This document shows, in pieces, positions 1-28,005 of a stretch of DNA of 37,926 nt. Origin of the DNA: a virus. The notes beneath the pieces were generated by a model. That model was given only the letters and a program-made list of their open reading frames with translations, ran no database searches and had not been told where the DNA came from. Position numbers and translations under genes: made by a program. Within the stretch, counting starts at the first letter, position 1; each line of letters opens with the position of its first letter. The DNA is taken from positions 1-37,926 of IMG/VR virus record IMGVR_UViG_3300036791_001337, one strand, 5' to 3'.

Positions 1-127
1 GGGTCGCCGGCGCCGGCGATCTGCTTTAAGACGATATTGGGGAGCGGCGTGGCTTCGGGCATTTGAGTCGGAAAGATCGCACTGGTGCCGTCGGGGAGCT
101 GGGCGACAATCGCGGTGATGCTACTCG
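1..127. repeat. Left copy of the 127-bp terminal overlap (identical to 37800-37926)
   Basis: Base-by-base comparison of the two window ends shows 127/127 identity. Confidence 0.97.
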
Positions 128-2532: not shown

Positions 2533-3303
2533 CTAGCCTATAGTTGTGAACGAGGGCATATGAACTGCCGGCTCTGCGGCAAAATCGTCGAGGTCGTCGA
2601 GTGGCTCGATCAGCTCGGGCTCTGCGGGAGCTGCTCGCCGGGGTACATCCCGGTCTGCGATTGCTTCGATCGCCTGGTCCCTCTGATACAAGAGCCGGAT
2701 GCTGGCCGCGTCGCACTTATGCAAGGTGAGAAAACCGGGCGGAGCGATTTCGATGTTGCGCGGCGGTCCCGGATAGCCCGGCACATAACGTGCGTCGTGC
2801 ACCGGAATGATGCCCTGAAGTCCTAAAGTCTTTCCCACCGCGCAGTCTTCCGCGAATTCGCCTGTCAGCAGGTGGTCGGCCACGATCGCGATCGCGCGCC
2901 GCGAGAGCCAGTAGCCGGCCCCGCCCTGGGCATAAGCGTAAATCAGGCCCGGTCCAGGGCCGTTACTCCAGCGCCCATCGCAGAAGCCTGAATAATCCGC
3001 AGTCGAGAAGTTGCTCGCCAGGAGCTGACGCGGCCGCACATAGGTGTCGTCGTCGCACTTGAACATCCAGTCGTAATCACGGGCGCGCGCCCACTTCGTG
3101 AGAGCGTGCGTCTTCGCGACCAGGGTGGCGTAAGTGTCCGGACATTCCAGAATCACTACATCCGGCTCCTTCGCAGTCCGAGGGAAGCCGAGAAAGTAGC
3201 GATAGTTCACGGCCGGCGGCAGGTCTCGCAGCCAGGTGTCGCGCTGCGCCTGGCGCAGATGCGCCCGCGCATGGCAGGAAGTGATGGCGATTAGAATCCT
3301 CAA
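2533..3303 (-). CDS. GT31 / Fringe-like glycosyltransferase
   Basis: Contains LRQAQRDTWL, WMFKCDDDTYV (DXD) and GGAGYWLSRRA motifs. The TTG start overlaps the upstream stop (TTGA). Confidence 0.65.
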   Translation of the reverse strand: MRILIAITSCHARAHLRQAQRDTWLRDLPPAVNYRYFLGFPRTAKEPDVVILECPDTYATLVAKTHALTKWARARDYDWMFKCDDDTYVRPRQLLASNFSTADYSGFCDGRWSNGPGPGLIYAYAQGGAGYWLSRRAIAIVADHLLTGEFAEDCAVGKTLGLQGIIPVHDARYVPGYPGPPRNIEIAPPGFLTLHKCDAASIRLLYQRDQAIEAIADRDVPRRAAPAEPELIEPLDDLDDFAAEPAVHMPSFTTIG

Positions 3304-3938
3304 GTTCGGAAGAACTTTTTAAACTCTGCTGGCGGCATCAAATGCGGCCTGTGCGCCGCGATCACCTCGGGACGCCAGATGGCCTCAGCCTCGCCGAGGT
3401 CGTAAAGCGCCAGAGTGTCGCGAGCAAAAAGATAGTCGCCTTCATAGGATCGGCCCCAGCCGCCGAGTTTCCCGAGCATGTTGGGCCAGGCGCCGCAGGC
3501 GGTGTCGAAATCGCCGCAGACCAGGCGCGGCCCGGAAGGCGCGATCTGGCCGTTCAGGAAGCGCACCTTGAAGATCACCGGTCGGCCACAAAACTGCTCA
3601 GCCGCGCCGCGCATGGCCCGGAAGGCGCCCGGTAGCATGACGTTGTCGTCGTCCTGAAAGACGATGTAATCGCCGCGCGCATGCCGGATCCCGAAATTGC
3701 GCTGCGTGTTGCCGAAGCAGTGGTCAAGCGGTCCCTCGAGATAACGGAAGGGCTGACCGAAGCATTCCTGATTGATCGACTTCACGCACTTCGCGGCAGA
3801 CGGCTGCGGACCATCGCCCACCACCAGGACCTCATCGCCCGCGTTGCCGACGATTAGGTCTTGGCGCGCAATCGAGTCGAGCATTCTGGTCAGCGTCGGC
3901 CGGCCCAGCGTCGCGATGATGACGCTCAGGGTAATCAC
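3300..3938 (-). CDS. GT2-family glycosyltransferase
   Basis: LSVIIATLGRPTLTRMLDSIARQ... and YIVFQDDDNV (DXD). I place the start at GTG 3938 (AAGG 6 nt upstream), which overlaps the GT32 stop as GTGA. The 311-aa ORF-track version would overlap GT32 by 300 nt. Confidence 0.7.
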   Translation of the reverse strand: MITLSVIIATLGRPTLTRMLDSIARQDLIVGNAGDEVLVVGDGPQPSAAKCVKSINQECFGQPFRYLEGPLDHCFGNTQRNFGIRHARGDYIVFQDDDNVMLPGAFRAMRGAAEQFCGRPVIFKVRFLNGQIAPSGPRLVCGDFDTACGAWPNMLGKLGGWGRSYEGDYLFARDTLALYDLGEAEAIWRPEVIAAHRPHLMPPAEFKKFFRT

Positions 3939-4642
3939 AAATACCTTCGCTTCAGTTGCTCGTAGAGGGACTCCGGCGGATAGGTCCCGTCGCGGTCCGC
4001 TTTGCCAAGCGCCCACATCGCGCCCCATAATTGCACCGCCGCGGCCTCCGGATGCAGCCTGGGCGCCGCCGGCGCAACCACGTCGCGCCAGCGATGCCAA
4101 TCGATAGGGCAGAAACGAAAGACGGGCTGCAGGTGCCGGCGCAGAGCAAAACGCCCGATCGCGGAGGCGACCAGGTCCGGACCATGCCCCGTATAACTCG
4201 CCTGTTGTTTGCCGGCGCAGAACTCGTGCATCCAAAGCGCGGCGGGAGCTCCGGCCGGCACGCGCGCGACGCCGCTCGTCGGGATCTCGACTCTGCCCTG
4301 GGCCTGGCTGGCGAAAACGTACTCACTCGCAAATTCGAAAGGCTTCAGCGCCATGACGTCGAGGTCGCACCACCACCCGCCGCGATCGAAGAGCAGTTTC
4401 CAGCGGAAGAGATCGCTGAAGCCGGCGTAATAGTCGCGGAACTTGAAGATGCGATCGCAGGGAATGATCGCGGCCGCGTCCTCGAGCACCACATCAGGTG
4501 GTGTGCCGTCCGGCTCGCTGTCATAGCAGTAGAGGTGATACTCGTGCCCCTGGGCTTGAAAAGAGCGGATCGATAGCCGCTCCATCGTGGATAGGCGCGG
4601 CCCGATCCAGAGGCCCTGGATCAAATCTCGGACCAATTTCAC
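3935..4642 (-). CDS. GT32-like glycosyltransferase (Gly_transf_sug DXD type, Och1/A4GALT-like)
   Basis: LWIGPRLSTMERLSIRSFQAQGHEYHLY... and FSDLFRWKLLFDRGGWWCDLDV. The GTG start overlaps the stop of the 74-aa ORF (GTGA). Confidence 0.65.
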   Translation of the reverse strand: MKLVRDLIQGLWIGPRLSTMERLSIRSFQAQGHEYHLYCYDSEPDGTPPDVVLEDAAAIIPCDRIFKFRDYYAGFSDLFRWKLLFDRGGWWCDLDVMALKPFEFASEYVFASQAQGRVEIPTSGVARVPAGAPAALWMHEFCAGKQQASYTGHGPDLVASAIGRFALRRHLQPVFRFCPIDWHRWRDVVAPAAPRLHPEAAAVQLWGAMWALGKADRDGTYPPESLYEQLKRRYL

Positions 4643-4863
4643 CGCTTGCGTTTCGGCGGATGTTGCGCGGCAGTCACGGCGCGCTCGCGCGCCGGTTCGA
4701 GGGCGGTGGTTTCGGCGCCCTGGCGGCCAGGGATGACCGCGCGGCCAAGTTCAGTGTCGAAGAGTTCGGCGGTTCCGAGGCCGAGGCGCGTCCGGGCGGC
4801 GGCGCAGTGCGCGTCAATCATTTGGCCGAAGCCTGGTCCGGCAATGATGCGGGCTACAAGCAT
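4639..4863 (-). CDS. 74-aa ORFan, first gene of the glycosyltransferase operon
   Basis: ATG preceded by GGAGGAGG with 7 nt spacing. Its stop overlaps the GT32 start. Confidence 0.55.
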   Translation of the reverse strand: MLVARIIAGPGFGQMIDAHCAAARTRLGLGTAELFDTELGRAVIPGRQGAETTALEPARERAVTAAQHPPKRKR

Positions 4864-4974
4864 AAGCTAACCTCCTCCGGGGGGACAGGAGTCGAGGACC
4901 GGGAAGCCGAAGGGGGGTTCGTTCCCCGGCCCTCTTTCTCCCGCTCTAAGGAGCTAACGAACAGCACAAGTCTA

Positions 4975-5709
4975 CTACGCATTGAACGAATCTTTCGCCA
5001 CCGTGACCGGGCCGAGACGTTCCCAGTCGTCCGGGTTCTTGAAATGATCGGATATGGCTCGAAGCCAGCCGCCATTTTCAAGAGTGAGTTCGAGGCCGAG
5101 TAATCGCGCCGCGCGCTCCGGCGCGCACTTCAACCACCATTCTGCATAGGTGTAGCGGTTCCCTTTGGACCAGTTGCAGCGTTTGCAGCAAACGACCAGG
5201 TTCTGTTTGAAGTAGCCCTGAGCATTGTCTTTCCGGTCGAGGTTATAGCGGGACCGGATGCCGACGCCGCGAGCGTTGTATTCGGCCCACGTGATGGGCG
5301 CATGACAGTAATGGCACTGATGGATGCACGTGAACTTCAGGAATTCTTCGTACGTCAGAGAAAAGACATGGCCTGCCTGCTGACACCTCAATCGGGTTCC
5401 GTTATAGAGAGCTTCATAGGGACGCAGGCGAAGATCCGGACGTTCCAGGCACTTGCGGCAGGTTCGGACTTTGAACTGGCCGCGAGTGAGTTCATTAGCA
5501 CCAAACCACCGTGTTGCACCGCACGTGTGCCGGGCCAGCCAGATTTTGCCGTGGTGATGGAAGCGCTTCGCCTCTATGGTCCAACCGCTGAAGGTCTTGC
5601 CTATCAGCGAACCGAGCCGGCTGGGTGATTGCCGAGAACTCCGGAGCCGGCCGGGGCGCGAATTTCGGTACCTCGGCCGGCCGGGAAAGTCAAATAAGTC
5701 TAGTTGCAT
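4975..5709 (-). CDS. HNH-family (homing-type) endonuclease
   Basis: CHYCHAPI...YNLDRKDNAQGYFKQNLVVCCKRCNWSKG is the LDRxDN...N...CxxCNxxK HNH motif. Confidence 0.7.
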   Translation of the reverse strand: MQLDLFDFPGRPRYRNSRPGRLRSSRQSPSRLGSLIGKTFSGWTIEAKRFHHHGKIWLARHTCGATRWFGANELTRGQFKVRTCRKCLERPDLRLRPYEALYNGTRLRCQQAGHVFSLTYEEFLKFTCIHQCHYCHAPITWAEYNARGVGIRSRYNLDRKDNAQGYFKQNLVVCCKRCNWSKGNRYTYAEWWLKCAPERAARLLGLELTLENGGWLRAISDHFKNPDDWERLGPVTVAKDSFNA

Positions 5710-7254: not shown

Positions 7255-8052
7255 TCAGGCGACGGCAGCCGCCACGCGGGCGCGCATCCTCAGCACCTCG
7301 AGGGCGCGCGAGTTCTCTTCCGTCTCGCCGTCGTCTTGCATCGGGCAGTCATGGTCCGCGCATTCGCCGTCGTCGCAGGCGACGTTCGAGCACCCCATGC
7401 AGTTGTCGTCCTCACAAGCGGTGCAGTCGCACTCGCAGCCGTTCGCGTTCTCTTCCTCATCGTCCTGGCGCTGCTGGCCGCGGCCGAGCACGGTCGCGAA
7501 GAGGCGGACGGAGCGCGGGCGCCCGTCGGGCCAGAGGGCGCGCTGATCGACGGAGGTCTGAGGATAGGCGGGAAAGGTGACGGGCGAAACGTCGAAGACA
7601 TCGACGGCGTGCAGCTCGCGGGTGTAGAGCGTGACGTTGCCGTCTTCGTCCTTCTCTTCGCCCCATTTTTCCTTGCGGACAATAAACCCGAACGAGCACT
7701 GGCTGATATCACCGCGGCCGATCGAGGTCAGCAGGTCCCGCGCGGCCTGAGTATCGGGCGTGTCGCAATCGAAGTGAAGGCCAGTATTGTCTTCGGCCAG
7801 GGAAAGGGTCCGCGCGGTCGTGCGCCCCAGGACTACGTCCGGGTTGTGATTCATCAGGCAGCGCACGTCAGGTTTCGTCGCGAGGCAAGCGGTGAAAGCC
7901 CCCGGCATCACCATCTCCCGGAAGGAAAACCAGGAGGAGCCGAGATCCTCAGATAGCTCATTGAAGACCGCGGCGTAACCTTCGATGCCGGGTTTCTCGC
8001 CCGCCTTGGCGCGGATATGAGCTTTCGCGATGATGCGGAATTCTCGTATCAT
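7255..8052 (-). CDS. Prohead protease, HK97 family (S78/U35), with a Cys-rich acidic C-terminal extension
   Basis: IEGYAAVFNELSEDLG...FREMVMPGAFTACL...VRCLMNHN matches the family. The C-terminus carries 9 Cys within residues 206-236. Confidence 0.88.
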   Translation of the reverse strand: MIREFRIIAKAHIRAKAGEKPGIEGYAAVFNELSEDLGSSWFSFREMVMPGAFTACLATKPDVRCLMNHNPDVVLGRTTARTLSLAEDNTGLHFDCDTPDTQAARDLLTSIGRGDISQCSFGFIVRKEKWGEEKDEDGNVTLYTRELHAVDVFDVSPVTFPAYPQTSVDQRALWPDGRPRSVRLFATVLGRGQQRQDDEEENANGCECDCTACEDDNCMGCSNVACDDGECADHDCPMQDDGETEENSRALEVLRMRARVAAAVA

Positions 8053-8095: not shown

Positions 8096-8542
8096 TTACT
8101 CTCGATTCCGCCGGTGCGACCGCTCCGGTGTCGTCTGACCAGGCTCGGGCGCGAGCGTCACGTCAAGCGGCAGACCGGTTCCGAAGAGATCGCCAGCCCA
8201 TTCGGGGACGCCGTCGGCGGGCGCGACGACCGTAACGGTGTCCTCGATTTCAAGGGCGGCGATTGCGGTTCCGGGTGTGAACAGTTGAACCTTAACGGTT
8301 GTTTCGCCCACGGCGACCGGGCTTACTACACCGCTGGCCACCGAGGCAGTGCCGCTCGCGGGGTCGCGAGGATTCTGGATGCGGACCGGGTTCGGGTCCA
8401 GCGAAACCACGCCGATACCGGCGGGATCGGCGCCCACCTGGAGGCTGGCGCCGCCGGGAAGCGGCGCGCCGAGTCCGGCGGCATTCTTGGCGATGACATA
8501 AAACGGATAGTTGGGACCGTTTTGGCGTAGGGTCAAAGGCAT
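8096..8542 (-). CDS. Ig-like (Big_2-like) domain protein between portal and protease
   Basis: ATG preceded by AAGGAG. ...ASVASGVVSPVAVGETTVKVQLFTP...TVTVV resembles bacterial Ig-like domains. Confidence 0.5.
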   Translation of the reverse strand: MPLTLRQNGPNYPFYVIAKNAAGLGAPLPGGASLQVGADPAGIGVVSLDPNPVRIQNPRDPASGTASVASGVVSPVAVGETTVKVQLFTPGTAIAALEIEDTVTVVAPADGVPEWAGDLFGTGLPLDVTLAPEPGQTTPERSHRRNRE

Positions 8543-8613: not shown

Positions 8614-10389
8614 TCATTCCAGTTTGGAACGCCTCACAGGTAGCCGGAAGCGCACCTCGAGGCGGATCGCAGCCGCGGCGCGCGCCAGCTCACGGTCGGA
8701 TAGAGCGTCAAGTTCGCCATTAGCAGTGCGCCATTCCTGGACACGGGTTGCCATTTGATTGAGATAGTCGGCGGCGAAGCGCGAGGACTCGAAACCGGGC
8801 GCACCGTCGAAAGCGATTTCCGGACCGCCGCAGGCCTCCGCAATCGAGCACAGAATAGGCCCGAAAGTGAGGCGAATCGTCTCCGAATCGGGGTTGCGGC
8901 GTTTCAAAATGCGCCCAATGGCGTCGCGAAAGATGCGCGAATAGAGGCGAATTACGCGCGCATTCGTCTTGTCGCCGCCGGCGGATGGTTCATCGGCGGC
9001 CGGTTCGTCAGGTGGTTCGTCGGCTGGCGGCACAACCTCCTGAGGCTTCTCCTGACCGCCCATTGCGGTCATGTTGACGGGCATCCAGAGCGCGTCGGCG
9101 GCGGGGTCATCGACCGGGTTCCAGTCTTCCATCTCCCTGATGTCGTTGGTTGAGCCCACGCCCCACTGTTTGACGGTCGCGTAAAAGTTGCGGCGCGATT
9201 CCGCATCGGGCATGGCGAGCTGGCGGGTCTCGAATTTCGGGAAATACTTTCCGGCGGTCCGACCCATCTTCGGGAATACGCGGCGTTTCAGTTCCTGCGT
9301 CCAGGATTCGAGCCATGGTCCCAGGGTGAAGGTGACGAACTCAAGGCCGATCTGCTCGGTGTTGGCCCTGTTTTGCTTCCCCGTATCGCCGATCATGTGC
9401 GGCGGCACCGAGAAGATCGAGCAAATCTCATCCTTCTGGAATTGGCGCGTTTGCAGGAATTGCGCGGCCTCGTTTTCGGACGAGGCGGCTTCGAATTTCA
9501 TCCCCTCTTCCAACACCGCGGTCTTGTGCGCGTTCTCGCCGCCTTGCGCCTCCTGCCAGGAACGCTTCAGGTTCTCGCGCGCTTGCGTCGACAGTTTGCC
9601 GGGATGAGTGACGACGCCGCCGGGCCGGGCGCCGTTGCCAAAATATTTGCTCCCGTACTTTTCAGTGGCGAGAGCGAGGCCGACGGCTTGCCGGGTTAGC
9701 CAGATGACGGATTGCCCGAGGCGGCCGTCGAGGGCCAGGCCTGGGACGTGGATCATATCCTCGGCGGCAATCAGCCGCGGCGAGGAGAGCGGCTGCGCGT
9801 CCGTCTCAAGGTCGGTGAGTTCATCCACCCCTTCGGTCGTCTCATAAATCAGCGTGCCGGCCGGCACGACTTCACCGAATTGCCCGACGCACGTCGGTTG
9901 CATCACGCGGCGCGGTTTCGTCCGCGCGGGATTCCGTGGCCAGAGCGCCAGCACGCTATTGCCCTTGTCGCGCTGAATCTCAGCGTACAGATTGCCCCAC
10001 AGCAGCGCATGCGACTGCAACGTCTTGCGAAACGTCAGCGCGGTCATTTCCGGGTTGGGTTCATAGCGCAGGAGGTCGTAGACGTTGTGCTCGTAAGCGA
10101 TGCGCTTGCCAGGCCGGCGGTCGGCGGTGTCAATCCACTCGAAGACGTGGAGCGGCAGGAAGCCGATGGCGGACGAAATCAGTTGCACGCAGGCGAAGAC
10201 GGTCGAGACTTGCAACGCGGTCATTTCCGAGACGCGAATGCCGGAGTCCGTCCGGCCGCCGTTGAAAATATCGAGCAGCCATTCGGCGGGATACGACAGC
10301 GGCGTCGATGGGTTTTCGAGCGACGTCCGGTATTCGGGCAGCACCCAGCTACGGACGGCGTTGCGGAGCGCGGAACCGATGATACTCAT
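8614..10389 (-). CDS. Portal protein, HK97 family
   Basis: YFGNGARPGGVVTHPGKLSTQARENLKRSWQEAQGGENAHKTAVLEEGMKFE...ICSIFSVPPHMIG matches the Phage_portal pattern. 591 aa. Confidence 0.9.
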   Translation of the reverse strand: MSIIGSALRNAVRSWVLPEYRTSLENPSTPLSYPAEWLLDIFNGGRTDSGIRVSEMTALQVSTVFACVQLISSAIGFLPLHVFEWIDTADRRPGKRIAYEHNVYDLLRYEPNPEMTALTFRKTLQSHALLWGNLYAEIQRDKGNSVLALWPRNPARTKPRRVMQPTCVGQFGEVVPAGTLIYETTEGVDELTDLETDAQPLSSPRLIAAEDMIHVPGLALDGRLGQSVIWLTRQAVGLALATEKYGSKYFGNGARPGGVVTHPGKLSTQARENLKRSWQEAQGGENAHKTAVLEEGMKFEAASSENEAAQFLQTRQFQKDEICSIFSVPPHMIGDTGKQNRANTEQIGLEFVTFTLGPWLESWTQELKRRVFPKMGRTAGKYFPKFETRQLAMPDAESRRNFYATVKQWGVGSTNDIREMEDWNPVDDPAADALWMPVNMTAMGGQEKPQEVVPPADEPPDEPAADEPSAGGDKTNARVIRLYSRIFRDAIGRILKRRNPDSETIRLTFGPILCSIAEACGGPEIAFDGAPGFESSRFAADYLNQMATRVQEWRTANGELDALSDRELARAAAAIRLEVRFRLPVRRSKLE

Positions 10390-10395
10390 GAGGTT

Positions 10396-11685
10396 TTAGG
10401 CCGGGCCTCCGGTTCTTAGTACAAAGACATCGACGCGCTGCTTGGGCCAGTCGCCGCCGAGGGTGCATTCCCAGTCGCTGGTGAATAGGAAAAACTCTCC
10501 GTTCGGGCTCACGTTGCCTCGCGGGGTCGAGTAGAAGTTGCCTGTGCCGTCGCGCGAGGTCACGGCGGTCGAGTAATGGTGGGCGAGCCTCCACCAGCGG
10601 CCACTGCCGTCCGTGGCCAGGGCCAGGATTTCGTTGTCTCCGGCGGCGTCGGACGTCAGCGGAGTTCCGCGCGTGATCGGGTTCTCAAGGGCGTTCTCGG
10701 TGCTTATGAACAGAGGGCTGCGGTCTGCTCCGTCGGCTAACGCCGAGATGTGCGAGTCACTCCACCAGCCAGGGACTGGCTCCGGGATCGGGACCATCAG
10801 GTTTTGCCAAGCAGGGATGTTCCAGAGCGGAGCCTGAATCCATTGGAACGGGACGCTTTTGCTGACGTTGCCGTACCACGTCGAAAACCCCAACGCTTGA
10901 TGCGCGAGAACAGGTGTTTGCTCGGAGTGCGTGAGAAGTTGAAACACGAGCGACCCCGGCTGCCAGAAGGCCATTTTGTTCCCATCCATCACCGGTGCGA
11001 TTCGGACGGCAGTGCCGCTCTTCGCCATGCGAAGGTTATGGATCAGGAATGGTTCCCAGGGCTCGATCCGGCCGGACGCCCAGCCGCCATAAACGCCGGT
11101 TTGAGTATCGAGCCAGCAGAGGCCGCGCACTTCGTCCCAAACACACACGAGCGAATTGCGGTCTTGGGCGGGGCCGAGGCAGACCGCCACTCGATTGTCC
11201 CACCAGTCCGCGCTGAGCGACATAAGATACCAGCGCGGCTCATCAGGAATGCCGAGCTCCGGGTAATCCATCAAATCGACCACAGTTTCGATTTGTTCCG
11301 TCGTGCGGTTGTATTGATTGATGGAGAGTCCATCAATACACCAGATCAGGTCACGATTCTGGCCACTGAACACCGGATTTGAAACACCGCTGGGCAGCCG
11401 CCGCAGCAACTGCGCCTGAAAATCCGTGAATTGAAACAGCCAATTCCAACCGCTCAGATCACCGATCACGAACGCCGAGGTATCACAGGCCCACGGCTGA
11501 GTTTCACTCGAAGAGGGTGTGGTGAAGCTGGCACCGGGCTTTCCCGCGTCCGTGTTCTCATCCGTCACCCGAATCATGGGATTGCCACAGAAGGGGTCAA
11601 TCACCGTAGAACCTGCGGGGCCGAGCTCGGGAGGCGTGCAGGGGTAGGAAATAATGCTTTGGTCGGTAATCGCGTTGAAATTCAT
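10396..11685 (-). CDS. Trp-rich, probably beta-propeller protein (TolB/PD40-like C-terminal repeat) of unknown function
   Basis: 429-aa ORF tightly packed upstream of the portal. ...YSTPRGNVSPNGEFFLFTSDW...RVDVFVL resembles PD40-type blades. I recognise no catalytic motif. Confidence 0.45.
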   Translation of the reverse strand: MNFNAITDQSIISYPCTPPELGPAGSTVIDPFCGNPMIRVTDENTDAGKPGASFTTPSSSETQPWACDTSAFVIGDLSGWNWLFQFTDFQAQLLRRLPSGVSNPVFSGQNRDLIWCIDGLSINQYNRTTEQIETVVDLMDYPELGIPDEPRWYLMSLSADWWDNRVAVCLGPAQDRNSLVCVWDEVRGLCWLDTQTGVYGGWASGRIEPWEPFLIHNLRMAKSGTAVRIAPVMDGNKMAFWQPGSLVFQLLTHSEQTPVLAHQALGFSTWYGNVSKSVPFQWIQAPLWNIPAWQNLMVPIPEPVPGWWSDSHISALADGADRSPLFISTENALENPITRGTPLTSDAAGDNEILALATDGSGRWWRLAHHYSTAVTSRDGTGNFYSTPRGNVSPNGEFFLFTSDWECTLGGDWPKQRVDVFVLRTGGPA

Positions 11686-11692
11686 GGGCGCC

Positions 11693-11965
11693 TCAGTTCA
11701 TCTGCAGGTTGAATTTGATATTTACCCGCGTCAACGTGTAACCAAGGTCGGCGACGGCCGCGATGAGTGCATCCTTGGCGCTGTTCAGGTTGACGGTCTG
11801 CGAGAGCGTGTTGTCGTAAGGAAACGAACTGGCGAAATCCAACTGATTCGTTCCGTCACTGATGACGCCCTGATAGGAAATTTGAATCTGCTGGGGATTC
11901 GGCGGCGTGCCGCCGCTGAGATCGAAGCGGGTCACGGTTAGAAACGCGAAGGCTGGATTAGCCAT
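11693..11965 (-). CDS. 90-aa hypothetical protein
   Basis: ATG 11965 lies 1 nt after the upstream stop (TAAAATG). Coding-like composition and no overlap conflict. Confidence 0.55.
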   Translation of the reverse strand: MANPAFAFLTVTRFDLSGGTPPNPQQIQISYQGVISDGTNQLDFASSFPYDNTLSQTVNLNSAKDALIAAVADLGYTLTRVNIKFNLQMN

Positions 11966-11966
11966 T

Positions 11967-13013
11967 TTAGGCAAACTCCCAAACACGAATCAGACCAGCC
12001 GCCCCAGCCCCTCCTGCGAAGGGGCCGCCGGTCAACGCGAGGGCGCCATTGCCGCCGCCTCCATACTTTTTGCCTGGGCTTCCATTGTTCGAAGATGTCA
12101 GTCCCATCAGCGCGCCGCCGCCGATTGGAGCGCTTCCGCCACTGCCGGAAATCCCAATGGTGCCCGAAATCCTCCAGAGAGGGCCACCGTCACAACCGTC
12201 GAATTTGATATCACCCACGCCGCTGGCAGACGCTCCGCCCGCGCCCCCTGGGCCAATCACAGATGAGGTTCCCGCCGAGACGACGTTCGGTCCGCCGGCG
12301 CCAGCCTTGGCCGTACACACCGACGTAGGACTGTCGAAAGTGGTATCCGTTCCGTTGTTTCCGGGCAAGGCTGCCCCTGGTACGGCACCTCCGGCGCCGA
12401 CCTGTACGGTATAGGTTGTTTTAATCGAGCCTGTCAGCCATGCGGCGGAGTATGCTCCACCGGCACCGCCCGAGCCACAAGAACAATTCGAGGACGCATT
12501 GGCTGCGCCCCCACCCGACCCGCCGCCGCCGATACATTCGACGTAAAGAGCGCGGGCTCCTGGAGTCGGCGAATAGCTTGTGCCGGTGACGAGGTCGACG
12601 ATTTGAATCAGCCGATAGAGTGCAGCGAAAACGCCAGCGCCAAGCTGGGTTTCGATAGCGTTTAGCTCCGCCGCAAGCTGATTGTGACTGAGTGCCGTGA
12701 TGTTATTGAGCACGACCGCGGCGGCGCTGTGGCTGGCCGCCGTGGTGCCTTCCTTGGCCCGCACGCAGCTATTCAGGGTGTCGGCGGACCGCGACCCGAC
12801 GAAGATGATCTCGTCGTCGATCGACACCTCGAAACTGTCGGCGGGAAGCTGCGCTCCGGTTCCGGCGGTGAGAGTGATAGTCGTGACGGCGGCGGTGATG
12901 CCGGCCAAAAGCGTGGGCGGGCTTCCGGCCAGCGAAGGGGTAGTGTTCGCGAGCAACAGCAGGTCGGCAGGACCGGCAATCGCACCCGGGAATTTGGCGG
13001 TCGGTAGTGGCAT
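11967..13013 (-). CDS. Tail-fibre-like protein with a C-terminal glycine-rich domain
   Basis: N-terminal SFEVSIDDEIIFVGSRSADTLNSCVRAKEGTTAASH motif is common in phage fibre proteins. The C-terminal half is Gly-rich (GGGGSGGG, GSGGAGGA, GGGGNG). The start overlaps the TerL stop (TGATG). Confidence 0.6.
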   Translation of the reverse strand: MPLPTAKFPGAIAGPADLLLLANTTPSLAGSPPTLLAGITAAVTTITLTAGTGAQLPADSFEVSIDDEIIFVGSRSADTLNSCVRAKEGTTAASHSAAAVVLNNITALSHNQLAAELNAIETQLGAGVFAALYRLIQIVDLVTGTSYSPTPGARALYVECIGGGGSGGGAANASSNCSCGSGGAGGAYSAAWLTGSIKTTYTVQVGAGGAVPGAALPGNNGTDTTFDSPTSVCTAKAGAGGPNVVSAGTSSVIGPGGAGGASASGVGDIKFDGCDGGPLWRISGTIGISGSGGSAPIGGGALMGLTSSNNGSPGKKYGGGGNGALALTGGPFAGGAGAAGLIRVWEFA

Positions 13014-14635
13014 CAGAGCAGCGTGATCTTAGGCGCGGAAGGCTGTTGGTTGACCATCGCCCGCACCAGGGCATTCACCGCGGCGGCGATCCCGTCGATG
13101 CGCGCCGTCTCGCGCGACCGCTCCGGCTTGGCGAACATGAGGTTATCGTTTGACTCTTTGACGGAGAGCGACGCGGCGTTCCAGCGCAATACAGGGTGCC
13201 CGCCGTGGCGCAGTTTGCCATTGGCCACGAGCTCGAGGAATTTCTTGCTGGGGCTTGAAAGCGTGGCATAGCCCTGGCGCACCTCCACGCAGGCGTGGCC
13301 CTCCTCGACAAGCGGCACGGAAAGCTGCTGCGAGTTCCAGGGATCGAGACAGATCTCCTGGAGATCGAACATTTCGGCGCCCCACTCGAGACGGGCTTTG
13401 ACGTCGCGGTAATCGATCACATTGCCGGGGCTCAGCTCGAGGAACCCCTGCTCGGCCCAGGTGCTGTAGGGCATGCCGTCCTTGAGCTCGCGCGCGCGAA
13501 TCCCCTCTTCCGGCATCCAGAAAAACGGCAGCACGTCAAAGACGTCAGTTTCCTCATCGGGGAAGAGAAAGGCCACGGCCGTCATATCGGTGGTCATGGA
13601 GAGGTCGACGCCGGCCCAGCAGCGGCGCTCGATGAAGCGACCGAGCAGATCGTGCGGCAGCGGCCGGACTTTGTCCTCCGGATGCTTCGGGACCAGGCCC
13701 CGGGCTTTCCAATCGCCGGCGCACCGCGCCCACTGCTCGAGATTGATGACGCGGTTTTCCTTCTGGTCCCATAGATTCAGGTAGTAGCGCTTGAAACTGC
13801 GCTGCGCTTCGGGATCGGAGAGCGAGGCCTGGTACTTAGCGCGCAGCTTCTCGATATCGAGAAAACCGCCGTTTTCCTTTAGGCTCGGATTCGCCTTGAT
13901 CCAGGTGGCTTCCGAGGTCCAATCGTTACCCTTTTCGGCTCCATAAATGCGCCCGTAGAAGGTGGGATCGTCAATCACGCCCTCGCGGATCCGCTGCGTT
14001 TTCTCGTGCAGGCGCCAGGCGAGCGGCGATTCGTTCACCACGCCCGCGGTGGTGATGGCGATGGCGAGCGTCTGCCGGCGCGTGATCCCGCCGAGTGAGA
14101 GCACATCCCAGTTCTCGAGCTGCTTCCGGGTCCTCCAGCGATGCACCTCGTCGGCCACAGTGATGGCGGGATTGACGCCGTCGGAGAGATCTCCGTCGGC
14201 GGCGATCGCTGCATAGAAGCTGTCGGGATCCTTGCGGTTGATGATGCGGTTGGTCGACCGTAGCAGGCGGAAACGCTTGGCCAAGAGAGGGCTTTGCTCC
14301 ACCATTTTGCAGGCGGCACGGTAGACGTTCATCGCCTGGCGGCCGGCGGCGGCGGCGCCGTAGACCTGGAACCCTGGGTTTTGAGCCATAAAGAGCGAGA
14401 GCAGCACCAGGCCCGCGGCGAACTCGGTTTTTCCGGTCTTTTTAGGCACTTCTAAATAAGCGAGGGTGATGCGGCGCCGGCCTTGCTCGTCGAGTTGGCC
14501 GAAGATCTCAGAGAGCGCTTCCTCCTGCCAGGGCGCGAGCTGGAAGGGCTTGTCGTACCACTCGTCGGCGGTGTGCTTGAGAATGATCTCAAAGAAGTTG
14601 CAAGCGAGATCGGCTTGAGCTTGCGCAAATGCCAC
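13013..14635 (-). CDS. terL: Terminase large subunit (Terminase_1 type)
   Basis: FQLAPWQEEALSEIFG...AYLEVPKKTGKTEFAAGLVLLSLF (Walker A-like). 540 aa, downstream of TerS. Confidence 0.9.
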   Translation of the reverse strand: MAFAQAQADLACNFFEIILKHTADEWYDKPFQLAPWQEEALSEIFGQLDEQGRRRITLAYLEVPKKTGKTEFAAGLVLLSLFMAQNPGFQVYGAAAAGRQAMNVYRAACKMVEQSPLLAKRFRLLRSTNRIINRKDPDSFYAAIAADGDLSDGVNPAITVADEVHRWRTRKQLENWDVLSLGGITRRQTLAIAITTAGVVNESPLAWRLHEKTQRIREGVIDDPTFYGRIYGAEKGNDWTSEATWIKANPSLKENGGFLDIEKLRAKYQASLSDPEAQRSFKRYYLNLWDQKENRVINLEQWARCAGDWKARGLVPKHPEDKVRPLPHDLLGRFIERRCWAGVDLSMTTDMTAVAFLFPDEETDVFDVLPFFWMPEEGIRARELKDGMPYSTWAEQGFLELSPGNVIDYRDVKARLEWGAEMFDLQEICLDPWNSQQLSVPLVEEGHACVEVRQGYATLSSPSKKFLELVANGKLRHGGHPVLRWNAASLSVKESNDNLMFAKPERSRETARIDGIAAAVNALVRAMVNQQPSAPKITLL

Positions 14636-15315: not shown

Positions 15316-15687
15316 CTACCCTATCCCCCCCGAGCGGGCGAAGGTTGAATCCTCGGTCGCGGTCTTGTGGCTATGGCATTGATGACAAGCGCCTTGCAGG
15401 TTCTCCATCGAGTCGTCGCCGCCCTTGGACTTCGGCGTGATGTGATCGGCTTCGGTGGACCGCGCGGTGCCGTCGCATAAGACGGCAATCCGACAGAGCG
15501 GGTCGCGGGCGATGACCATCAAGCGAAGTTTGCGCCAGCGCGCACCGTAACCGCGAGCGCTGGAGGATCCACGGAAGCGGTCGAATTGATGGCGGGGTGA
15601 TGCGGTCAGGTGTTGCGCGCAGTAAGGGCCCGCACAGAGGGCGCCGCAGTTCGGCACCCGACAGATTCGGTTCGCACGTTGTGGCAT
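15316..15687 (-). CDS. HNH endonuclease associated with the terminase (packaging HNH)
   Basis: MPQRANRICRVPNCG...YCAQH...GYGARWRKLR...EADHITPKSKGGDDSMENLQGACHQCHSHKT. I use internal ATG 15687, because the upstream part of the ORF is a shadow of a degenerate membrane-gene remnant. Confidence 0.85.
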   Translation of the reverse strand: MPQRANRICRVPNCGALCAGPYCAQHLTASPRHQFDRFRGSSSARGYGARWRKLRLMVIARDPLCRIAVLCDGTARSTEADHITPKSKGGDDSMENLQGACHQCHSHKTATEDSTFARSGGIG

Positions 15688-15689
15688 GT

Positions 15690-15905
15690 CAGTACGGTTC
15701 GGCCCCGAATGGAGCGGCCGATGAAGTAAGCGACGACGGCCAGGACCAGCGTCAAGGCGGCGCCCCGCCGTAGCCGCGCCGCGAGGGCGAGCCCCGGTCG
15801 CGGTCATATAGTGTGGGCGTCTGGCGCGCGTACGCGGTACAGTAGGCGCCCTCGCAAGCCGCGCCGCACCCGGGTGCGCGGCACCTGTTTCGCTCGGCGA
15901 GGCAT
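15690..15905 (-). pseudogene. Chimeric remnant: frameshifted 5' fragment of an HNH gene fused to the 3' fragment of a 2-TM membrane gene
   Basis: ATG 15905 gives MPRRAKQ. A +1 frame then reads RCRAPGCGAACEGAYCTAYARQTPTLYDRDRGSPSRRGYG (compare RICRVPNCGALCAGPYCAQH...RGSSSARGYG in the intact HNH). A further frame reads GAALTLVLAVVAYFIGRSIRGR (compare GAALTAALAITAYFVGRSIRNRL of 16251-16433). Confidence 0.6.
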
Positions 15906-20765: not shown

Positions 20766-20792
20766 GTGCAATCTGATGCAACACGGTGCAAC
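20766..20792 (+). promoter_or_regulatory. Three (G/A)TGCAA(T/C) direct repeats at exact 10-bp spacing in the RHH/integrase divergent region
   Basis: GTGCAAT at 20766, ATGCAAC at 20776 and GTGCAAC at 20786. The same hexamer, on the opposite strand, recurs at attP. Confidence 0.45.
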
Positions 20793-20839
20793 AAGTGTGG
20801 ACGGTGGGTGTACACTGTACGCCGGAGGTGACGGCAAAA

Positions 20840-21973
20840 ATGGCGCATCGAGGCGGAAGGGAACGGGGATTGTGGCAACCGAAGCGGTTGCAAGGCACGG
20901 CCACCTGGGGGATCTGTTATGCCGACGCCACCGGCCAGATCCAGCGCAAGGTTATCGGCACGCTGGCCCAGGCCCGGCACGCTTACCAGGAGCGCAAGCG
21001 CGAGGTCCGCCTGCGCCTCAACACGCCCGAGCTCGCCGAGGCGGCGCGCGGGCGCGTGACCTTCCAAGAGGTCATGGACGCGGCGCTCGCATACTGCCGG
21101 CGGCACGCGGGCTACGACGATGACATGTTCCGCGCCAAGCGCATGTGCTCTTGGTGGGGATCGATGCCGGCCACGGCCCTGACGCCGCAGGAAATCGAAC
21201 TGCGCTTCGAATCGATGACGGCGCTCAAAAACCACAGCGCCGAGAAGCGCCCGATGTCGGACGCGACGCGCAATCGCTACCGGTCGCAACTGTCACTCGC
21301 CTACCAGCTCGCGCAGAAATACGGCAAGGTCCCGGGCGGGTTCAATCCGGCGCGCCTGGTGAAATTGCGGAAAGAACCGGCGCGCGTGCGCTGGCTGTCA
21401 GCGGATGAGGAGATGCGCTTGCGCGAGGTCCTGGCGCGGGAATTCCCGGACCGGCCCTGGGCCCGCGTCCTCGACCTGGCGTTGAACTGCGGCCTGCGCT
21501 GGGGCGATCAAAGCGCCCTCACGCCGGCCCAGCGCGACGGCGAAAGGCTGCTCGTCGATATCGGCAAGACGGGCGTGCCGGTGGGCCTGAAGCTAAACGA
21601 GATTGCGGCCGAGGCCTTCGCCGCCCTCGAGGCCGAAGCCGAGGGTTCGCGCATTCATCCCCGCAAACAGTATCGCTGGTGGTGGGACAAAGCCCGGCGC
21701 CTCGCCGGGATCACGAATTTCCACTGGCACGATCTGCGCCATACCTTCGCCACCCGCTTGCTCGAGGCGGACGTACCGATGGAGAAGGTCCAGAAGTATC
21801 TCGGCCACAAGACCATCGCCATGGCTCAGCGCTACGCGCACGTCGTCGAGGGCTGCCACGACGACGGCCTGGAGAAGCTCGCCGAAATCAACCGGCGCTG
21901 TGCCCAGGGCGGTGGCAAGGTGATGTCGATCGGGAGCGGCCGAACGAAGAAGTTGAAACAGGTTGCAGAGTGA
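20840..21973 (+). CDS. int: Tyrosine recombinase / phage integrase
   Basis: C-terminal HWHDLRHTFATRLLEADVPMEKVQKYLGHKTIAMAQRYAHV (R...HxxR...Y catalytic signature). ATG 20840 is preceded by GGAGGTG. The ORF is open from 20786. Confidence 0.9.
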   Translation: MAHRGGRERGLWQPKRLQGTATWGICYADATGQIQRKVIGTLAQARHAYQERKREVRLRLNTPELAEAARGRVTFQEVMDAALAYCRRHAGYDDDMFRAKRMCSWWGSMPATALTPQEIELRFESMTALKNHSAEKRPMSDATRNRYRSQLSLAYQLAQKYGKVPGGFNPARLVKLRKEPARVRWLSADEEMRLREVLAREFPDRPWARVLDLALNCGLRWGDQSALTPAQRDGERLLVDIGKTGVPVGLKLNEIAAEAFAALEAEAEGSRIHPRKQYRWWWDKARRLAGITNFHWHDLRHTFATRLLEADVPMEKVQKYLGHKTIAMAQRYAHVVEGCHDDGLEKLAEINRRCAQGGGKVMSIGSGRTKKLKQVAE

Positions 21974-23660: not shown

Positions 23661-24266
23661 ATGAACAAATCACGTTTGATTCTAGCAGTCGCAGCAGCGG
23701 TGGGACTTATGGGGCTCGAGATTCCGGCGGCCCTGGCCCAGTCTGCCTTTCAGCTTGAGGATGGCACGCCGATCGAGCTCCGTCTGGCGCGGAGGCTGTC
23801 ATCGGCCGATGCCCAGGTCGATGAAAGGGTGAATTTTGAAGTCCTCGAGGACGTCGTAGTCAAAGGCGCCCTGGTGATTCCCAAAGGCAGCGTTGCCCTG
23901 GGAACGATCACGGAGGCACAGTCGAAGCGAAGGATGGGACGAGGGGGTAAACTCGGCGTCGAACTCGATTCGGTTCGCCTGGCAGATGGCGAGAAGTGCG
24001 CCATCAGCGCAACAAAGAACGAAAAAGGGGGAGGACATGTCGGTGCAATGACCACCGGGATGGTAGCCAGTGCCCTGGTAGTTGCGCCGGTGGTGGCACC
24101 GTTGTTTCTGCTGATGCACGGTAAAGACATCACCATGCCGAAGGGTACGCCGATCACAGCCTATGTCGCGGGAACGATGAACCTAGATGCTACGAAGTTT
24201 TCAGCGTCGGCGGCAGCGGAGGCGCAAGCGGTAGAAGTCTTGCCGGCCCCTACCTTCGCGAATTAG
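23661..24266 (+). CDS. Secreted/membrane-anchored moron protein (signal peptide, C-terminal hydrophobic segment)
   Basis: MNKSRLILAVAAAVGLMGLEIPAALAQS signal peptide. AGGAGGG SD. Visibly lower GC than the structural genes. Confidence 0.7.
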   Translation: MNKSRLILAVAAAVGLMGLEIPAALAQSAFQLEDGTPIELRLARRLSSADAQVDERVNFEVLEDVVVKGALVIPKGSVALGTITEAQSKRRMGRGGKLGVELDSVRLADGEKCAISATKNEKGGGHVGAMTTGMVASALVVAPVVAPLFLLMHGKDITMPKGTPITAYVAGTMNLDATKFSASAAAEAQAVEVLPAPTFAN

Positions 24267-24323
24267 TCCAGGAAGGCGGCCGCCGGCGAAGGTCGATGAA
24301 TTTCAAATTAAGGGGTGAACTTT

Positions 24324-24713
24324 ATGAGCAGAGCGAAAAAGTTGGCTGGCTGTTTGGTAGCAGTCCTAGTGCTAGCAAGCGCAGGCGTGCAGGCTAAAAA
24401 GGATCGTCAACAAGATCCGGCCCTCGAGCGCCGGCAGCAATTCGTTGTTGGCTACACTCAGCTCTTGGAGCGGGCCGGTTGGGAGGGCGAGGCAACACCC
24501 ATTCTGGCTGGGAAAAACAAAGATGTGCTTCTCATCTGGATGCCTGGTGAATTGGTTGAGCGGATGTATCGCTTTGAAAATCTCTGCGTGGAGCCGCTCC
24601 TCAAAGAAGAAGCGTCAGAGATGAAAGATCTTAGCTTCATCGGAATAGAGATCAAGACGGATTCCTTCTCGGTCTCGTTCCCGAAGGGAGTCTGGGATCT
24701 TCCCCTGCAGTAA
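24324..24713 (+). CDS. Secreted moron protein (signal peptide)
   Basis: MSRAKKLAGCLVAVLVLASAGVQAKK signal peptide. I prefer ATG 24324 to the GTG 24315 used in the ORF track. Its leader resembles that of the preceding gene. Confidence 0.65.
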   Translation: MSRAKKLAGCLVAVLVLASAGVQAKKDRQQDPALERRQQFVVGYTQLLERAGWEGEATPILAGKNKDVLLIWMPGELVERMYRFENLCVEPLLKEEASEMKDLSFIGIEIKTDSFSVSFPKGVWDLPLQ

Positions 24714-24735: not shown

Positions 24736-25002
24736 TTACGCGGCCGGCGGCGGCTTGCGGAGCCCAGCGCCACGGCGGTTCTCCCTGCCGCGGCGAACAC
24801 GTCCGGCCGCCTTATCAACGGCGTAGAGAACAGCTCCGACAGCAACCAGGAATTCGGCGGCCTCGTCGAGGTCCTGGGCCGGAAGCTGTCCGGTGCGAAC
24901 GACGATGGTAGTAAGCCAGAGGACGAGGGCGATCAGGCAGAGGGCAACGCCCCAGCGGGATAGACGGGCAGGCGAATTGGTGAGAGAGCGCCAGAGACCC
25001 AT
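24736..25002 (-). CDS. 88-aa two-TM protein with a highly basic C-terminus; holin-like; last gene of the late operon
   Basis: WGVALCLIALVLWLTTIVV and FLVAVGAVLYAV helices, with tail RVRRGRENRRGAGLRKPP. Confidence 0.5.
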   Translation of the reverse strand: MGLWRSLTNSPARLSRWGVALCLIALVLWLTTIVVRTGQLPAQDLDEAAEFLVAVGAVLYAVDKAAGRVRRGRENRRGAGLRKPPPAA

Positions 25003-26865: not shown

Positions 26866-28005
26866 TCACGTTTCAAGCTGGGCGGTAAAATTCCAGGCGC
26901 TGGTTCCTGTCGCCACGTCAATGCTGAACACGTCGCCGGCCGCCACGGGCAGCGGCACCGAAGTCAGGGCCGCGGAGGTGCTGACCGTTCCGGACGCGGT
27001 TCCTGCAGCGACGGTGGGGTCGGCCGAGAACACGTCGGTTCCGTTCTGTTTGATCTTGATGGTCAGGCCGGTCGAGCCGTCGCTGGCCTTGGTGACGATC
27101 ACGCACTTCGAGAACGTGCCGGCGCGCGGGGCGGCCAGCATGGGACCGACGTTGGTTCCGGCCGCTCCCGAGTTGATGATGAATCCGACGGTGAGGCCTG
27201 CCGCGCCGGCTCCGGGCGGAACAGCCCAGGTGCCGTCGGCCTTGAGAAACTTGCCGGCCGCCGCCGTTCCGGCGACCGGCGCAGGAACCGTGCCGCGCGT
27301 GCCGCCGCTGCCCGAGTCGCCCGTCATATCGGAGACGGCCAGCGTGCGGTCGGCGGACAGATCTCCGCCGCCCGTGACTGGAGCGGTCGTCAGGATTTGC
27401 CGGGAACGCAGGGCAAGCGCGGTCGGTTCCCACTTGGCCGAGCTCGAGGAATACTGCAGCGCATCGCCGTCGGTGGGTCCGCCATCAATGGGCTTGGACT
27501 GAAGGCCGATGACTTGCTGCGAAGACGAGGTCCCCGATAGGTCTCCCCCTGCAGCAAAAGCCCCCATCGGGAGAGGGGTCGGCTCCCACTTGCCGGACGA
27601 CGCCGAGTACTTCAATACATTGCCGTCGGTGGGTCCGCCGTCGATGGGCTTCGATTGCAGCCCGATCACTTGCTGCGAGCTACTCGAGCCCGAGAGATCT
27701 CCGCCTGGCGAGAACCCTCCACCGGCTGCCGGCGTAATGGCCCAGGTACCGTCCGCCTTCAAAAACTTCCCGGCAGCGGCGTCCCCTGGCCCTGGCGGAG
27801 GCACGGCGCCGATGGCGCCACCGGATCCTGAGTCGCCGGTGAATTCCGCGACAGAGGCCGAGATATCACGCAGCTCGAGGGAAGGATTATTTGGGTCCGG
27901 GTAGGCAGTGCTCGCCTGCCACTTGACGTTGACGGATCCGGTGGGCGCCGCCGGCGTCGTATCGTTCAGGTTTGCTTCGGTTGGAGTTTGGCCGAGGACC
28001 GGCAT
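26866..28005 (-). CDS. Tail fibre protein with internal sequence repeats
   Basis: TGDSGSGG..G.VP.P..G.AAAGKFLKADGTWA occurs twice. GGDLSG(S/T)SSSQQVIGLQSKPIDGGPTDG..L.YS.SS.KWEPT occurs twice with a 52-aa period. Confidence 0.75.
   Translation of the reverse strand: MPVLGQTPTEANLNDTTPAAPTGSVNVKWQASTAYPDPNNPSLELRDISASVAEFTGDSGSGGAIGAVPPPGPGDAAAGKFLKADGTWAITPAAGGGFSPGGDLSGSSSSQQVIGLQSKPIDGGPTDGNVLKYSASSGKWEPTPLPMGAFAAGGDLSGTSSSQQVIGLQSKPIDGGPTDGDALQYSSSSAKWEPTALALRSRQILTTAPVTGGGDLSADRTLAVSDMTGDSGSGGTRGTVPAPVAGTAAAGKFLKADGTWAVPPGAGAAGLTVGFIINSGAAGTNVGPMLAAPRAGTFSKCVIVTKASDGSTGLTIKIKQNGTDVFSADPTVAAGTASGTVSTSAALTSVPLPVAAGDVFSIDVATGTSAWNFTAQLET
27415..27705. repeat. Intragenic tandem duplication (156-bp period) inside the tail fibre gene
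   Basis: Codons 101-145 and 153-197 encode near-identical 45-aa blocks. Confidence 0.8.

Follow-up and report, generated by a model that had tools for sequence, protein, structure and literature searches.

Between the genes for the large terminase subunit (TerL) and the portal protein, the viral record IMGVR_UViG_3300036791_001337 of IMG/VR (37,926 nucleotides, analysed over its whole length and referred to here as the window) carries three closely packed genes, which we call gpA, gpB and gpC. We argue that this triad is probably a horizontally exchanged cassette for adsorption and polysaccharide depolymerisation, and not head decoration, because of the homology of gpA to tail-borne fibres, the behaviour of its N-terminal anchor, the gene order of sister phages and the genomic contexts in which homologues of gpC occur. 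An earlier reading of the DNA letters alone (the original prediction) had offered three roles for the genes, namely head fibres or decoration, a set of ejected or packaged proteins, or a second receptor-binding or depolymerase system; in its receptor-binding and depolymerase part, the last of these fits best.

Three genes inserted at the TerL/portal junction

Open reading frame (ORF) calls and Pfam annotation bore out the three genes on the minus strand between TerL and portal, where the original prediction had placed them (Table 1), and its description of them proved accurate in nearly every particular. The TGA stop of TerL and the ATG of gpA share one base in a TGATG overlap, gpA and gpB meet in a TAAAATG (the longest ORF for gpB would have 97 amino acids (aa) if counted from an upstream GTG), and gpB and gpC are separated by 7 nucleotides (nt; GGCGCCC); the sole small error concerned the gap between gpC and the portal gene, given as 7 nt and in fact 6 nt (AACCTC). 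The fibre-type motifs quoted for gpA are present in the sequence, its C-terminal part is indeed glycine-rich (28% glycine), and gpC is rich in tryptophan (22 residues, 5.1%). Searches for promoters or terminators around the cassette, and for flanking repeats that would mark a mobile element, gave nothing above chance, and RNA structure at the gpB/gpC junction gave no signal (z-score -0.25). Since no promoter or terminator signal is apparent and Pfam and PHROG annotation describes a single long late operon on the minus strand, wrapping across the contig ends, we read the cassette as part of that operon; a regulatory meaning of its expression with the packaging genes, as entertained in the original prediction, is not visible.

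To place the triad in a wider context, we used loci encoding relatives of the window TerL, 74 from a scan of IMG/VR (30-79% identical) and 20 from a scan of GTDB, 94 in all. Where both genes were detected in these loci, TerL and portal mostly lie side by side, in keeping with the expectation that the two genes are normally neighbours, and relatives of gpA, gpB or gpC are found in none of them (0/74 viral and 0/20 GTDB loci). In the closest relative, L014, whose TerL and portal are 79% and 65% identical to those of the window, the portal ATG and the TerL stop overlap as ATGA. The triad, absent from all 94 loci and from a junction closed by overlap in the closest relative, is therefore an insertion relative to related phages, which answers the question of an indel that the original prediction had raised. 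The third-position GC content of the cassette is 0.67-0.72, as compared with 0.80 in TerL, 0.77 in portal, 0.81 in the protease and 0.78 in the capsid gene. Across relatives, the TerL/portal junction is a recurrent insertion site with differing cargo. Among INPHARED phages, distant-mode DNA and tblastn searches with the region, gpC and gpA returned nothing or chance-level matches, the BLAST low-complexity filter probably masking the Gly-rich part of gpA.

The cargo found at this junction in relatives includes GIY-YIG-type endonucleases, small membrane proteins and a 135-aa protein (Table 1), and TerL is separated from portal by a protease-capsid fusion gene in L038, L044 and L058. The 135-aa insert at the TerL/portal junction of L081 (558-965), a relative of the window phage, is homologous to a 126-aa protein encoded after the capsid gene of L003 (5345-5725; 40% identity over 99 aa, E 8e-16), where it lies just upstream of a Gly-rich fibre gene and a gpC homologue.

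gpA as a putative fibre with the anchor of its lineage and an exchanged tip

In sequence comparisons, residues 1-130 of gpA match a fibre anchor domain. An anchor profile (A3) aligns with residues 5-110 of a solved "putative tail fiber protein", chain 1 of 8jov (E 1.2e-9), which tblastn assigns to GP4-like Ralstonia podophages, and 20-21 of 23 members of the anchor family also match tail fibres in PHROG (families 11439 and 8469). With a threshold of E<=1e-3, 1846 representative proteins match the domain; among the best 150 of these it is nearly always N-terminal (residues ~1-130), in proteins that span about 110 to over 1000 aa and have very different C-termini. A conserved N-terminal anchor joined to interchangeable C-termini is the classic design of phage receptor-binding proteins. 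When profile A3 was run over the window, gpA was the sole protein found to carry the anchor.

The remainder of the protein (residues 131-348) is predicted to form a TNF-like beta-sandwich with a polyglycine-rich distal domain. Pfam Gly_rich_2 (PF21722) matches residues 144-343 with 42.3 bits against a cut-off of 24.3, at least 150 homologues of gpA carry this domain, and PHROGs 863, 6202 and 454 (tail fibre) match the same C-terminal part. An AlphaFold 2 (AF2) monomer model built on a 71-sequence alignment has a predicted local distance difference test score (pLDDT) above 90 nearly throughout residues 131-348, and a Foldseek search of the PDB gave two strong matches only, the fibre of phage Pam3 (7ypx, E 2.5e-8) and a protein of the Bxb1 tail tip (9d93_Q, E 7.7e-8), with 7yfw and the glycine-rich domains of ALK/LTK as further matches. 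A local profile hidden Markov model linked the domain to Bxb1 gp33, the "tail wing brush" (E 3e-6), which BLASTP with gpA had not matched. By contrast, no capsid-bound fibre or decoration protein was matched by gpA, gpB or gpC in Pfam, PHROG, PDB sequence or Foldseek searches. Pfam, PHROG, Foldseek and the 8jov profile match together uphold the original description of gpA as a fibre with a fibre-type N-terminus and a Gly-rich distal domain. The C-terminal part is most likely the receptor-binding tip, and gpA as a whole most likely a trimeric tail or side fibre.

A further comparison comes from two sister phages, L094 and L115. Relative to the window, L094 is 88% identical in the capsid protein, 64% in the connector, 62% in the tail tube, 41-61% in the tape measure and 66% in DUF2460; the hub and the J protein of the sister phages are 59% and about 50% identical to those of the window, and the downstream tail genes of L115, which comes from the same sample as L014, are 50-68% identical. 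In L094 the tail-tube gene is followed by genes for a 184-aa protein, a 281-aa fibre, a 374-aa protein and the chaperone; the first 123 residues of this fibre are 72% identical to gpA and its C-terminus is different. The order in L115 is likewise 184-aa protein, 324-aa fibre (with an anchor 62% identical to that of gpA), 351-aa protein and chaperone. In the window, the corresponding junction between tail tube and chaperone is empty (Table 1). Because L094 and L115 carry the same anchor elsewhere, at a site that is empty in the window, these alignments suggest that the lineage has kept its fibre as a component, with its gene at varying junctions and its distal half exchanged; gpA looks like the lineage's own side fibre, at a new locus and with a swapped distal domain. 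The placement of a same-anchor fibre at differing junctions argues against a functional tie to packaging, and also against the word "second" in the original prediction, which is doubtful given that the genome holds a single copy of the anchor and that the sister-phage fibre site is unoccupied.

gpB, a candidate partner of the fibre tip

The original prediction had called gpB an ORFan, which is nearly right: five homologous protein clusters were found among 5.8 billion, giving a family of six clusters in all that are 64-76% identical. A gpB homologue directly follows a Gly_rich_2 gene in every context seen (the window, L009, L088 and L089). In L009, a J-like protein is followed by a 275-aa Gly_rich_2 protein and then by gpB (73% identical). 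In L088 and L089, a podovirus-like lineage with RepA, ParA and Prim-Pol genes, TerL is followed by small ORFs, one or more Gly_rich_2 fibres, gpB, a P22-type portal and the capsid gene, so that a second, unrelated lineage natively has the fibre-gpB pair between TerL and portal. The Gly_rich_2 partners of gpB have N-termini that differ in every lineage; since their C-termini and gpB are what is shared, gpB goes with the tip domain. It has the placement expected of a chaperone, immediately downstream of a fibre gene and co-inherited with the distal domain, and from this position and co-inheritance we regard it as a candidate small, soluble assembly chaperone or tip partner. We identified no transmembrane segment in gpB and no match in Pfam, PHROG, NCBIfam or PADLOC; a gpB profile gave chance-level matches alone against the PDB and nothing in JGI metagenome contigs or IMG/VR.

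The podovirus-like genome, represented by L088/L011 (contig SRR33118834_1117, 34 kb) and L089, is a phage-plasmid-like element (RepA_C, ParA, Prim-Pol) with one or two Gly_rich_2 genes, and it also encodes a gpC homologue, located elsewhere.

gpC, a predicted seven-bladed propeller with relatives in polysaccharide loci

The proposal that gpC is a beta-propeller is well supported by an AF2 model (75-sequence alignment; pLDDT 94.8, predicted template modelling score (pTM) 0.93), which is all-beta, with 28 strands arranged as seven four-stranded blades that span residues ~27-424 of 429. The best PDB match in Foldseek is the PL22 oligogalacturonate lyase 3c5m (E 1.2e-12; template modelling (TM) score 0.53/0.60), and among viral structures an unnamed protein of 1172 aa matches best, with a TM of 0.69 on the query. 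The original prediction had suggested a search for polysaccharide lyase or hydrolase signatures, and profile searches revealed none: PL22 Pfam was not matched at E<=1 in any of the 75 members, and membership of gpC in PL22 accordingly fails on sequence. Neither Pfam, PHROG, NCBIfam nor PADLOC holds a family for gpC (some members have weak PD40 repeats only); its profile found chance-level WD40, TolB and NHL matches alone among PDB sequences, 3c5m not being among them, and nothing in IMG/VR. Still, the 108 homologues detected define a family with marked conservation: D30, R39, H262, R366, H369, R417 and D419 are invariant, Q174, H216, D310, H312 and E352 are near-invariant, and the phage copies have retained the invariant His, Arg, Asp and Gln. 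This pattern would suit a metal-dependent active site.

Cellular and phage members of the family differ at their N-termini. Cellular homologues start 31-104 residues earlier than phage ones and carry Tat (P0002) or Sec signal peptides; the phage copies have no signal peptide and start 5-10 residues before the fold. The signal-less forms make up one clade, with P0002 nested inside, a position that suggests phage-to-host gene flow or else a very recent capture. All three distant cellular homologues sampled (P0029, P0028 and P0076) lie in polysaccharide loci, among genes for sulfotransferases, polysaccharide deacetylases, FemAB-type acetyltransferases, UDP-glucose/GDP-mannose dehydrogenase and a Polysacc_synt_3 flippase, together with a heparinase II/III in one of the three. 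Signal-less members with an interpretable neighbourhood were found in phage or phage-plasmid contexts throughout: in L003 the gpC homologue stands between a 660-aa Gly_rich_2 fibre, which it follows, and a tailspike-like protein, and in L009 and L012 it lies at the end of the tail module (the context in L118 was uninformative). The simplest reading of these sequences and contexts is that gpC descends from an enzyme of exopolysaccharide processing in the host, which phages acquired and use as a depolymerase; a uronic-acid substrate and lyase chemistry are plausible. A more far-reaching proposal, which we put forward as possible but rather doubtful, is that the gpC family represents a new kind of polysaccharide-cleaving seven-bladed propeller, with a PL22-like mechanism and an unrelated sequence, that Acidobacteria would secrete to act on their own sulfated, uronic-acid exopolysaccharides, and that phages would have captured, stripped of its signal peptide and shuttled together with a fibre tip and its partner at late-operon junctions, with translational coupling preserved.

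P0002 (L001 8001-9413), the closest relative of gpC (58% identity), is chromosomal and adjoins genes for a GH36 enzyme and an M28 peptidase. Directly upstream of the gpC homologue in L009 (8912-9955) and L011 (8966-9991) is a gene for a protein of 347 and 341 aa, respectively, without a match to any family; the two are 77% identical in otherwise different elements, and this protein could be a second enzyme working with the propeller.

Weighing the cassette against other explanations

Read as an adsorption and depolymerase system, the cassette, placed exactly at the TerL/portal junction, would be expressed within the single late operon. The lineage-specific anchor and short helical neck of gpA would dock the fibre to the virion, and its swapped-in TNF-like and polyglycine-rich tip would recognise the host surface; gpB may help this tip to fold and trimerise, or may cap it, like gp25 of Pam3 for gp24; and gpC, acting bound to the virion or after release at lysis, would cleave or modify an acidic or sulfated host exopolysaccharide, so that the phage could reach the cell surface and perhaps escape. 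A number of observations weigh against this picture. The AF2 model of the gpA anchor has low confidence (pLDDT 43-66), and gpB does not detectably resemble any known fibre chaperone. For gpC, the fold match to 3c5m is moderate, generic WD40 propellers following from E 3e-9, and neither PL22 nor any CAZy-linked Pfam family is matched in sequence. No virion-binding domain is fused to gpC, as the propeller fills the protein, and attachment would need a partner. The cassette adjoins the portal in two unrelated lineages, which may reflect a location near the head or neck, and the gpC homologues of L009 and L012 follow small holin-like membrane proteins.

Taken with the failure to recognise an endolysin anywhere in the window genome, these holin-like neighbours mean that gpC could belong to lysis instead of adsorption. 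As a soluble late lysis or release enzyme it would remain in the cytoplasm until holin action and then degrade matrix or wall, with gpA and gpB still acting as fibre and partner. In L009 the gpC homologue is preceded by a 104-aa protein with hydrophobic segments and by the 347-aa protein, and in L012 by a 49-aa membrane protein; the 347/341-aa partner is 77% identical between two elements that otherwise differ, the window has a holin-like 88-aa ORF, and gpC has no anchor domain, all of which speak for this account. Yet the neighbours packed against gpC in the window and L003 are fibre genes and not membrane-protein genes, its cellular homologues lie in exopolysaccharide loci and not cell-wall loci, and we know of no propeller endolysin; as roles of a depolymerase in release and in entry can coexist, we judge a purely lytic gpC unlikely. 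Less probable still is a role of the three proteins as head or neck (collar) fibres or decoration. Docking of gpA near the portal vertex or on the capsid would explain a cassette among head genes, between TerL and portal in the window; it would sit well with the Gly_rich_2 fibre and gpB directly upstream of the portal in the unrelated podovirus-like L088/L089, with the Gly-rich fibre and gpC that follow the capsid gene in L003, and with Bxb1, in which the genes for gp4-gp6, whose annotations are tail-collar fibre and spacer, lie upstream of that for the terminase. However, the solved homologues of both gpA domains are all tail-borne (8jov, the Pam3 fibre and the Bxb1 tail tip), the same-anchor fibre of the sister phages lies beside the tail-tube gene, and neither gpA nor gpB resembles Bxb1 gp4, gp5 or gp6; the tail of a podovirus, moreover, lies wholly next to the portal, so that little can be concluded from L088 for a siphovirus. 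We found no positive evidence for this first option of the original prediction, and nothing at all that points to the ejected or packaged protein set that was its second.

Very improbable, in our estimation, is a selfish or accessory moron without a virion role (defence, anti-defence or lysogenic conversion) that happens to occupy a permissive hotspot. The TerL/portal junction is such a hotspot in relatives, and the third-position GC of the cassette differs from that of its flanks, but there is good support for a fibre role of both gpA domains, gpA is the sole carrier of the lineage's fibre anchor, PADLOC gave no matches, and the genes lie on the late-operon strand, tightly coupled and with no promoter of their own.

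Comparison with known systems

The closest parallel to gpA and gpB is offered by the cyanophage Pam3, in which a TNF-like and glycine-rich unit is the receptor-binding tip of the trimeric fibre gp24, whose folding needs gp25, the product of the next gene (PMC9608196). Pam3 gp24 (7ypx/7yfw) has the fold of the C-terminal part of gpA at 26% identity, with GGGGxGG-type motifs in common, and in both phages a small gene stands right after the fibre gene. Unlike gpA, with its unrelated and beta-rich anchor, the fibre of the myophage Pam3 docks by an alpha-helical N-terminus; gp25 (162 aa) and gpB (90 aa) have no detectable similarity; and the Pam3 fibre genes are part of the tail module, whereas gpA and gpB lie between TerL and portal. 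The polyglycine-rich domain is also found on the tail tip of the mycobacteriophage Bxb1, a siphophage (PMC13252515), where the protein that shares it with gpA, gp33 (9d93 chain Q), is again encoded in the tail module. Bxb1 further provides a precedent for fibre-type genes away from the tail genes, in the form of gp4 ("tail collar fibers") and gp6 ("tail collar spacer") upstream of the terminase, although its TerL and portal are adjacent, unlike those of the window. Homology of gpA or gpB to the displaced Bxb1 gp4, gp5 or gp6, or to gp34, was considered and set aside, as there is no similarity. For the anchor, the parallel is chain 1 of 8jov, the fibre of a GP4-like Ralstonia podophage, whose N-terminal domain is homologous to that of gpA and whose 18 chains in the entry would fit six trimers; in a podovirus the docking partner must differ, and the C-terminal part of this fibre is unrelated to gpA.

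For gpC, the nearest enzyme is the PL22 lyase 3c5m, likewise a seven-bladed propeller, which acts on uronic-acid sugars. PL22 enzymes are cytoplasmic; in one example, YeOGL of Yersinia, three His and one Gln bind Mn2+, and a His and an Arg of the central cavity are catalytic. The gpC family also keeps His, Arg and Gln residues, H216, H262, H312, H369, Q174, R39, R366 and R417 being invariant or near-invariant in its sequence alignment and possible counterparts of such a site, and its cellular members lie in loci that include a UDP-glucose dehydrogenase. It differs in that no sequence relationship to PL22 is detectable, in that the structural match is moderate (TM 0.53-0.60) and in that the cellular gpC homologues are secreted. 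Propeller-built phage enzymes that degrade glycans and are linked to receptor-binding modules are known from the K1F endosialidase and the levanases of Bacillus phages, which have 5 or 6 blades and GH-family folds and as a rule carry a virion anchor fused at the N-terminus; gpC, in contrast, is a free-standing 7-bladed propeller without an anchor.

Gly-rich fibre tips, fibre chaperones, swapped receptor-binding modules and displaced fibre genes (Bxb1 4-6) are thus of kinds already known. What appears new is the exact site of insertion within an otherwise invariant TerL-portal pair, the presence of a same-anchor fibre at different junctions in sister phages, and a propeller family, uncharacterised so far, that connects exopolysaccharide loci of Acidobacteria with their phages. 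The current picture of phage mosaicism is not overturned by these observations. Since the fibre gene lies at the tail tube/chaperone junction in the sister phages and between TerL and portal in the window, annotation of receptor-binding proteins by position is unreliable. Acidobacteriota are a dominant, slime-rich phylum of soils whose phages are almost unstudied, and the cassette supplies a concrete candidate for their receptor-binding proteins; enzymes of the gpC family may cut acidobacterial exopolysaccharide, with a bearing on soil aggregation and carbon turnover and possible use as tools.

The genome, its late operon and further features

An exact 127-bp direct repeat at both ends of the window (1-127 and 37800-37926) indicates a circularly assembled and probably complete genome of about 37.8 kb. 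The late operon runs in the order HNH, TerS, TerL, gpA-gpB-gpC, portal, a 148-aa ORF, protease and major capsid protein and continues, across the contig ends, with tail tube, chaperones, tape measure, DUF2460, a phiJL001-gp84-like hub, a J-like protein of the Phage-tail_3/Rcc01698_C type and three more tail genes. An integrase gene marks the phage as temperate, and the closest TerL relatives in GTDB are prophages of Bryobacteraceae, Acidobacteriaceae KBS 96 and other Terriglobia, which places the host in the phylum Acidobacteriota. Judged by its genes, then, the window phage is a temperate HK97-like siphophage of Acidobacteriota.

Table 1 Positions of the cassette, of flanking and other genes in the window, and of inserts at the corresponding junction in related loci.
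Feature	Coordinates	Strand	Remarks
gpA	11967-13013	minus	348 aa
gpA residues 1-130, matching a virion-anchor domain, then short helical neck (HNQLAAELNAIETQLG)	12624-13013	minus	
gpA residues 131-348, predicted TNF-like beta-sandwich and polyglycine-rich distal domain	11967-12623	minus	
gpB	11693-11965	minus	90 aa; start is the ATG of TAAAATG
gpC	10396-11685	minus	429 aa
TerL, boundary upstream of the insertion	13013-14635	minus	Pfam TerL_ATPase E 1.7e-19, TerL_nuclease E 7e-41; PHROG 9
Portal, boundary downstream of the insertion	8614-10389	minus	Pfam Phage_portal E 3e-97
HNH	15316-15807	minus	
Integrase	20786-21973		
Tail tube	37071-37493	minus	
Tail chaperone	36295-36876	minus	
Empty tail-tube/chaperone junction	36877-37070	minus	~195 nt; sister phages hold the same-anchor fibre module here
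Putative glycosyltransferase, GT32/OCH1-like by motif	3935-4642	minus	no PDB match
Putative glycosyltransferase, GT2-like	3300-~4004	minus	PglI 9jma E 5.5e-4
Putative glycosyltransferase, GT31-like	2533-3303	minus	DDDTYV motif; C1GalT1 E 2.6e-3
TerL/portal junction insert, L047	2400-3188		
TerL/portal junction insert, L079	6781-7530		
TerL/portal junction insert, L081	558-1105		
TerL/portal junction insert, L045	4232-4444		

Several further features of the genome were noted. Between the capsid and head-tail connector genes (2533-5709, minus strand) are an HNH-like 244-aa ORF (4975-5709, minus strand) and three genes for putative glycosyltransferases, which may serve virion glycosylation or the modification of surface glycans; the sister phage L094 has just two small ORFs between capsid and connector. 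The 148-aa ORF between portal and protease (8096-8542, minus strand) is Ig-like by eye and has no PHROG match. It would be another small head-module insertion, as the closest relative L014 seems to run from portal to protease directly. In the prohead protease ORF (7255-8052), an S78 domain at residues 13-169 is followed by a long acidic tail rich in Cys, Asp and Glu, which makes up the C-terminal ~90 aa (7255-7530) and includes CECDCTACEDDNCMGCSNVACDDGECADHDCPMQDD.

After the last tail gene, the 88-aa holin-like ORF (24736-25002, minus strand) has two hydrophobic segments and is adjoined by two plus-strand ORFs with signal peptides (201 and 132 aa; 23661-24713) that look like morons expressed in lysogeny. 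Lastly, a 64-residue stretch of a 379-aa tail protein of the window (26866-28005) shares 75% identity with a segment of the J-like protein in L009 (5938-6129), an otherwise unrelated phage, and so gives another sign that these phages exchange modules.

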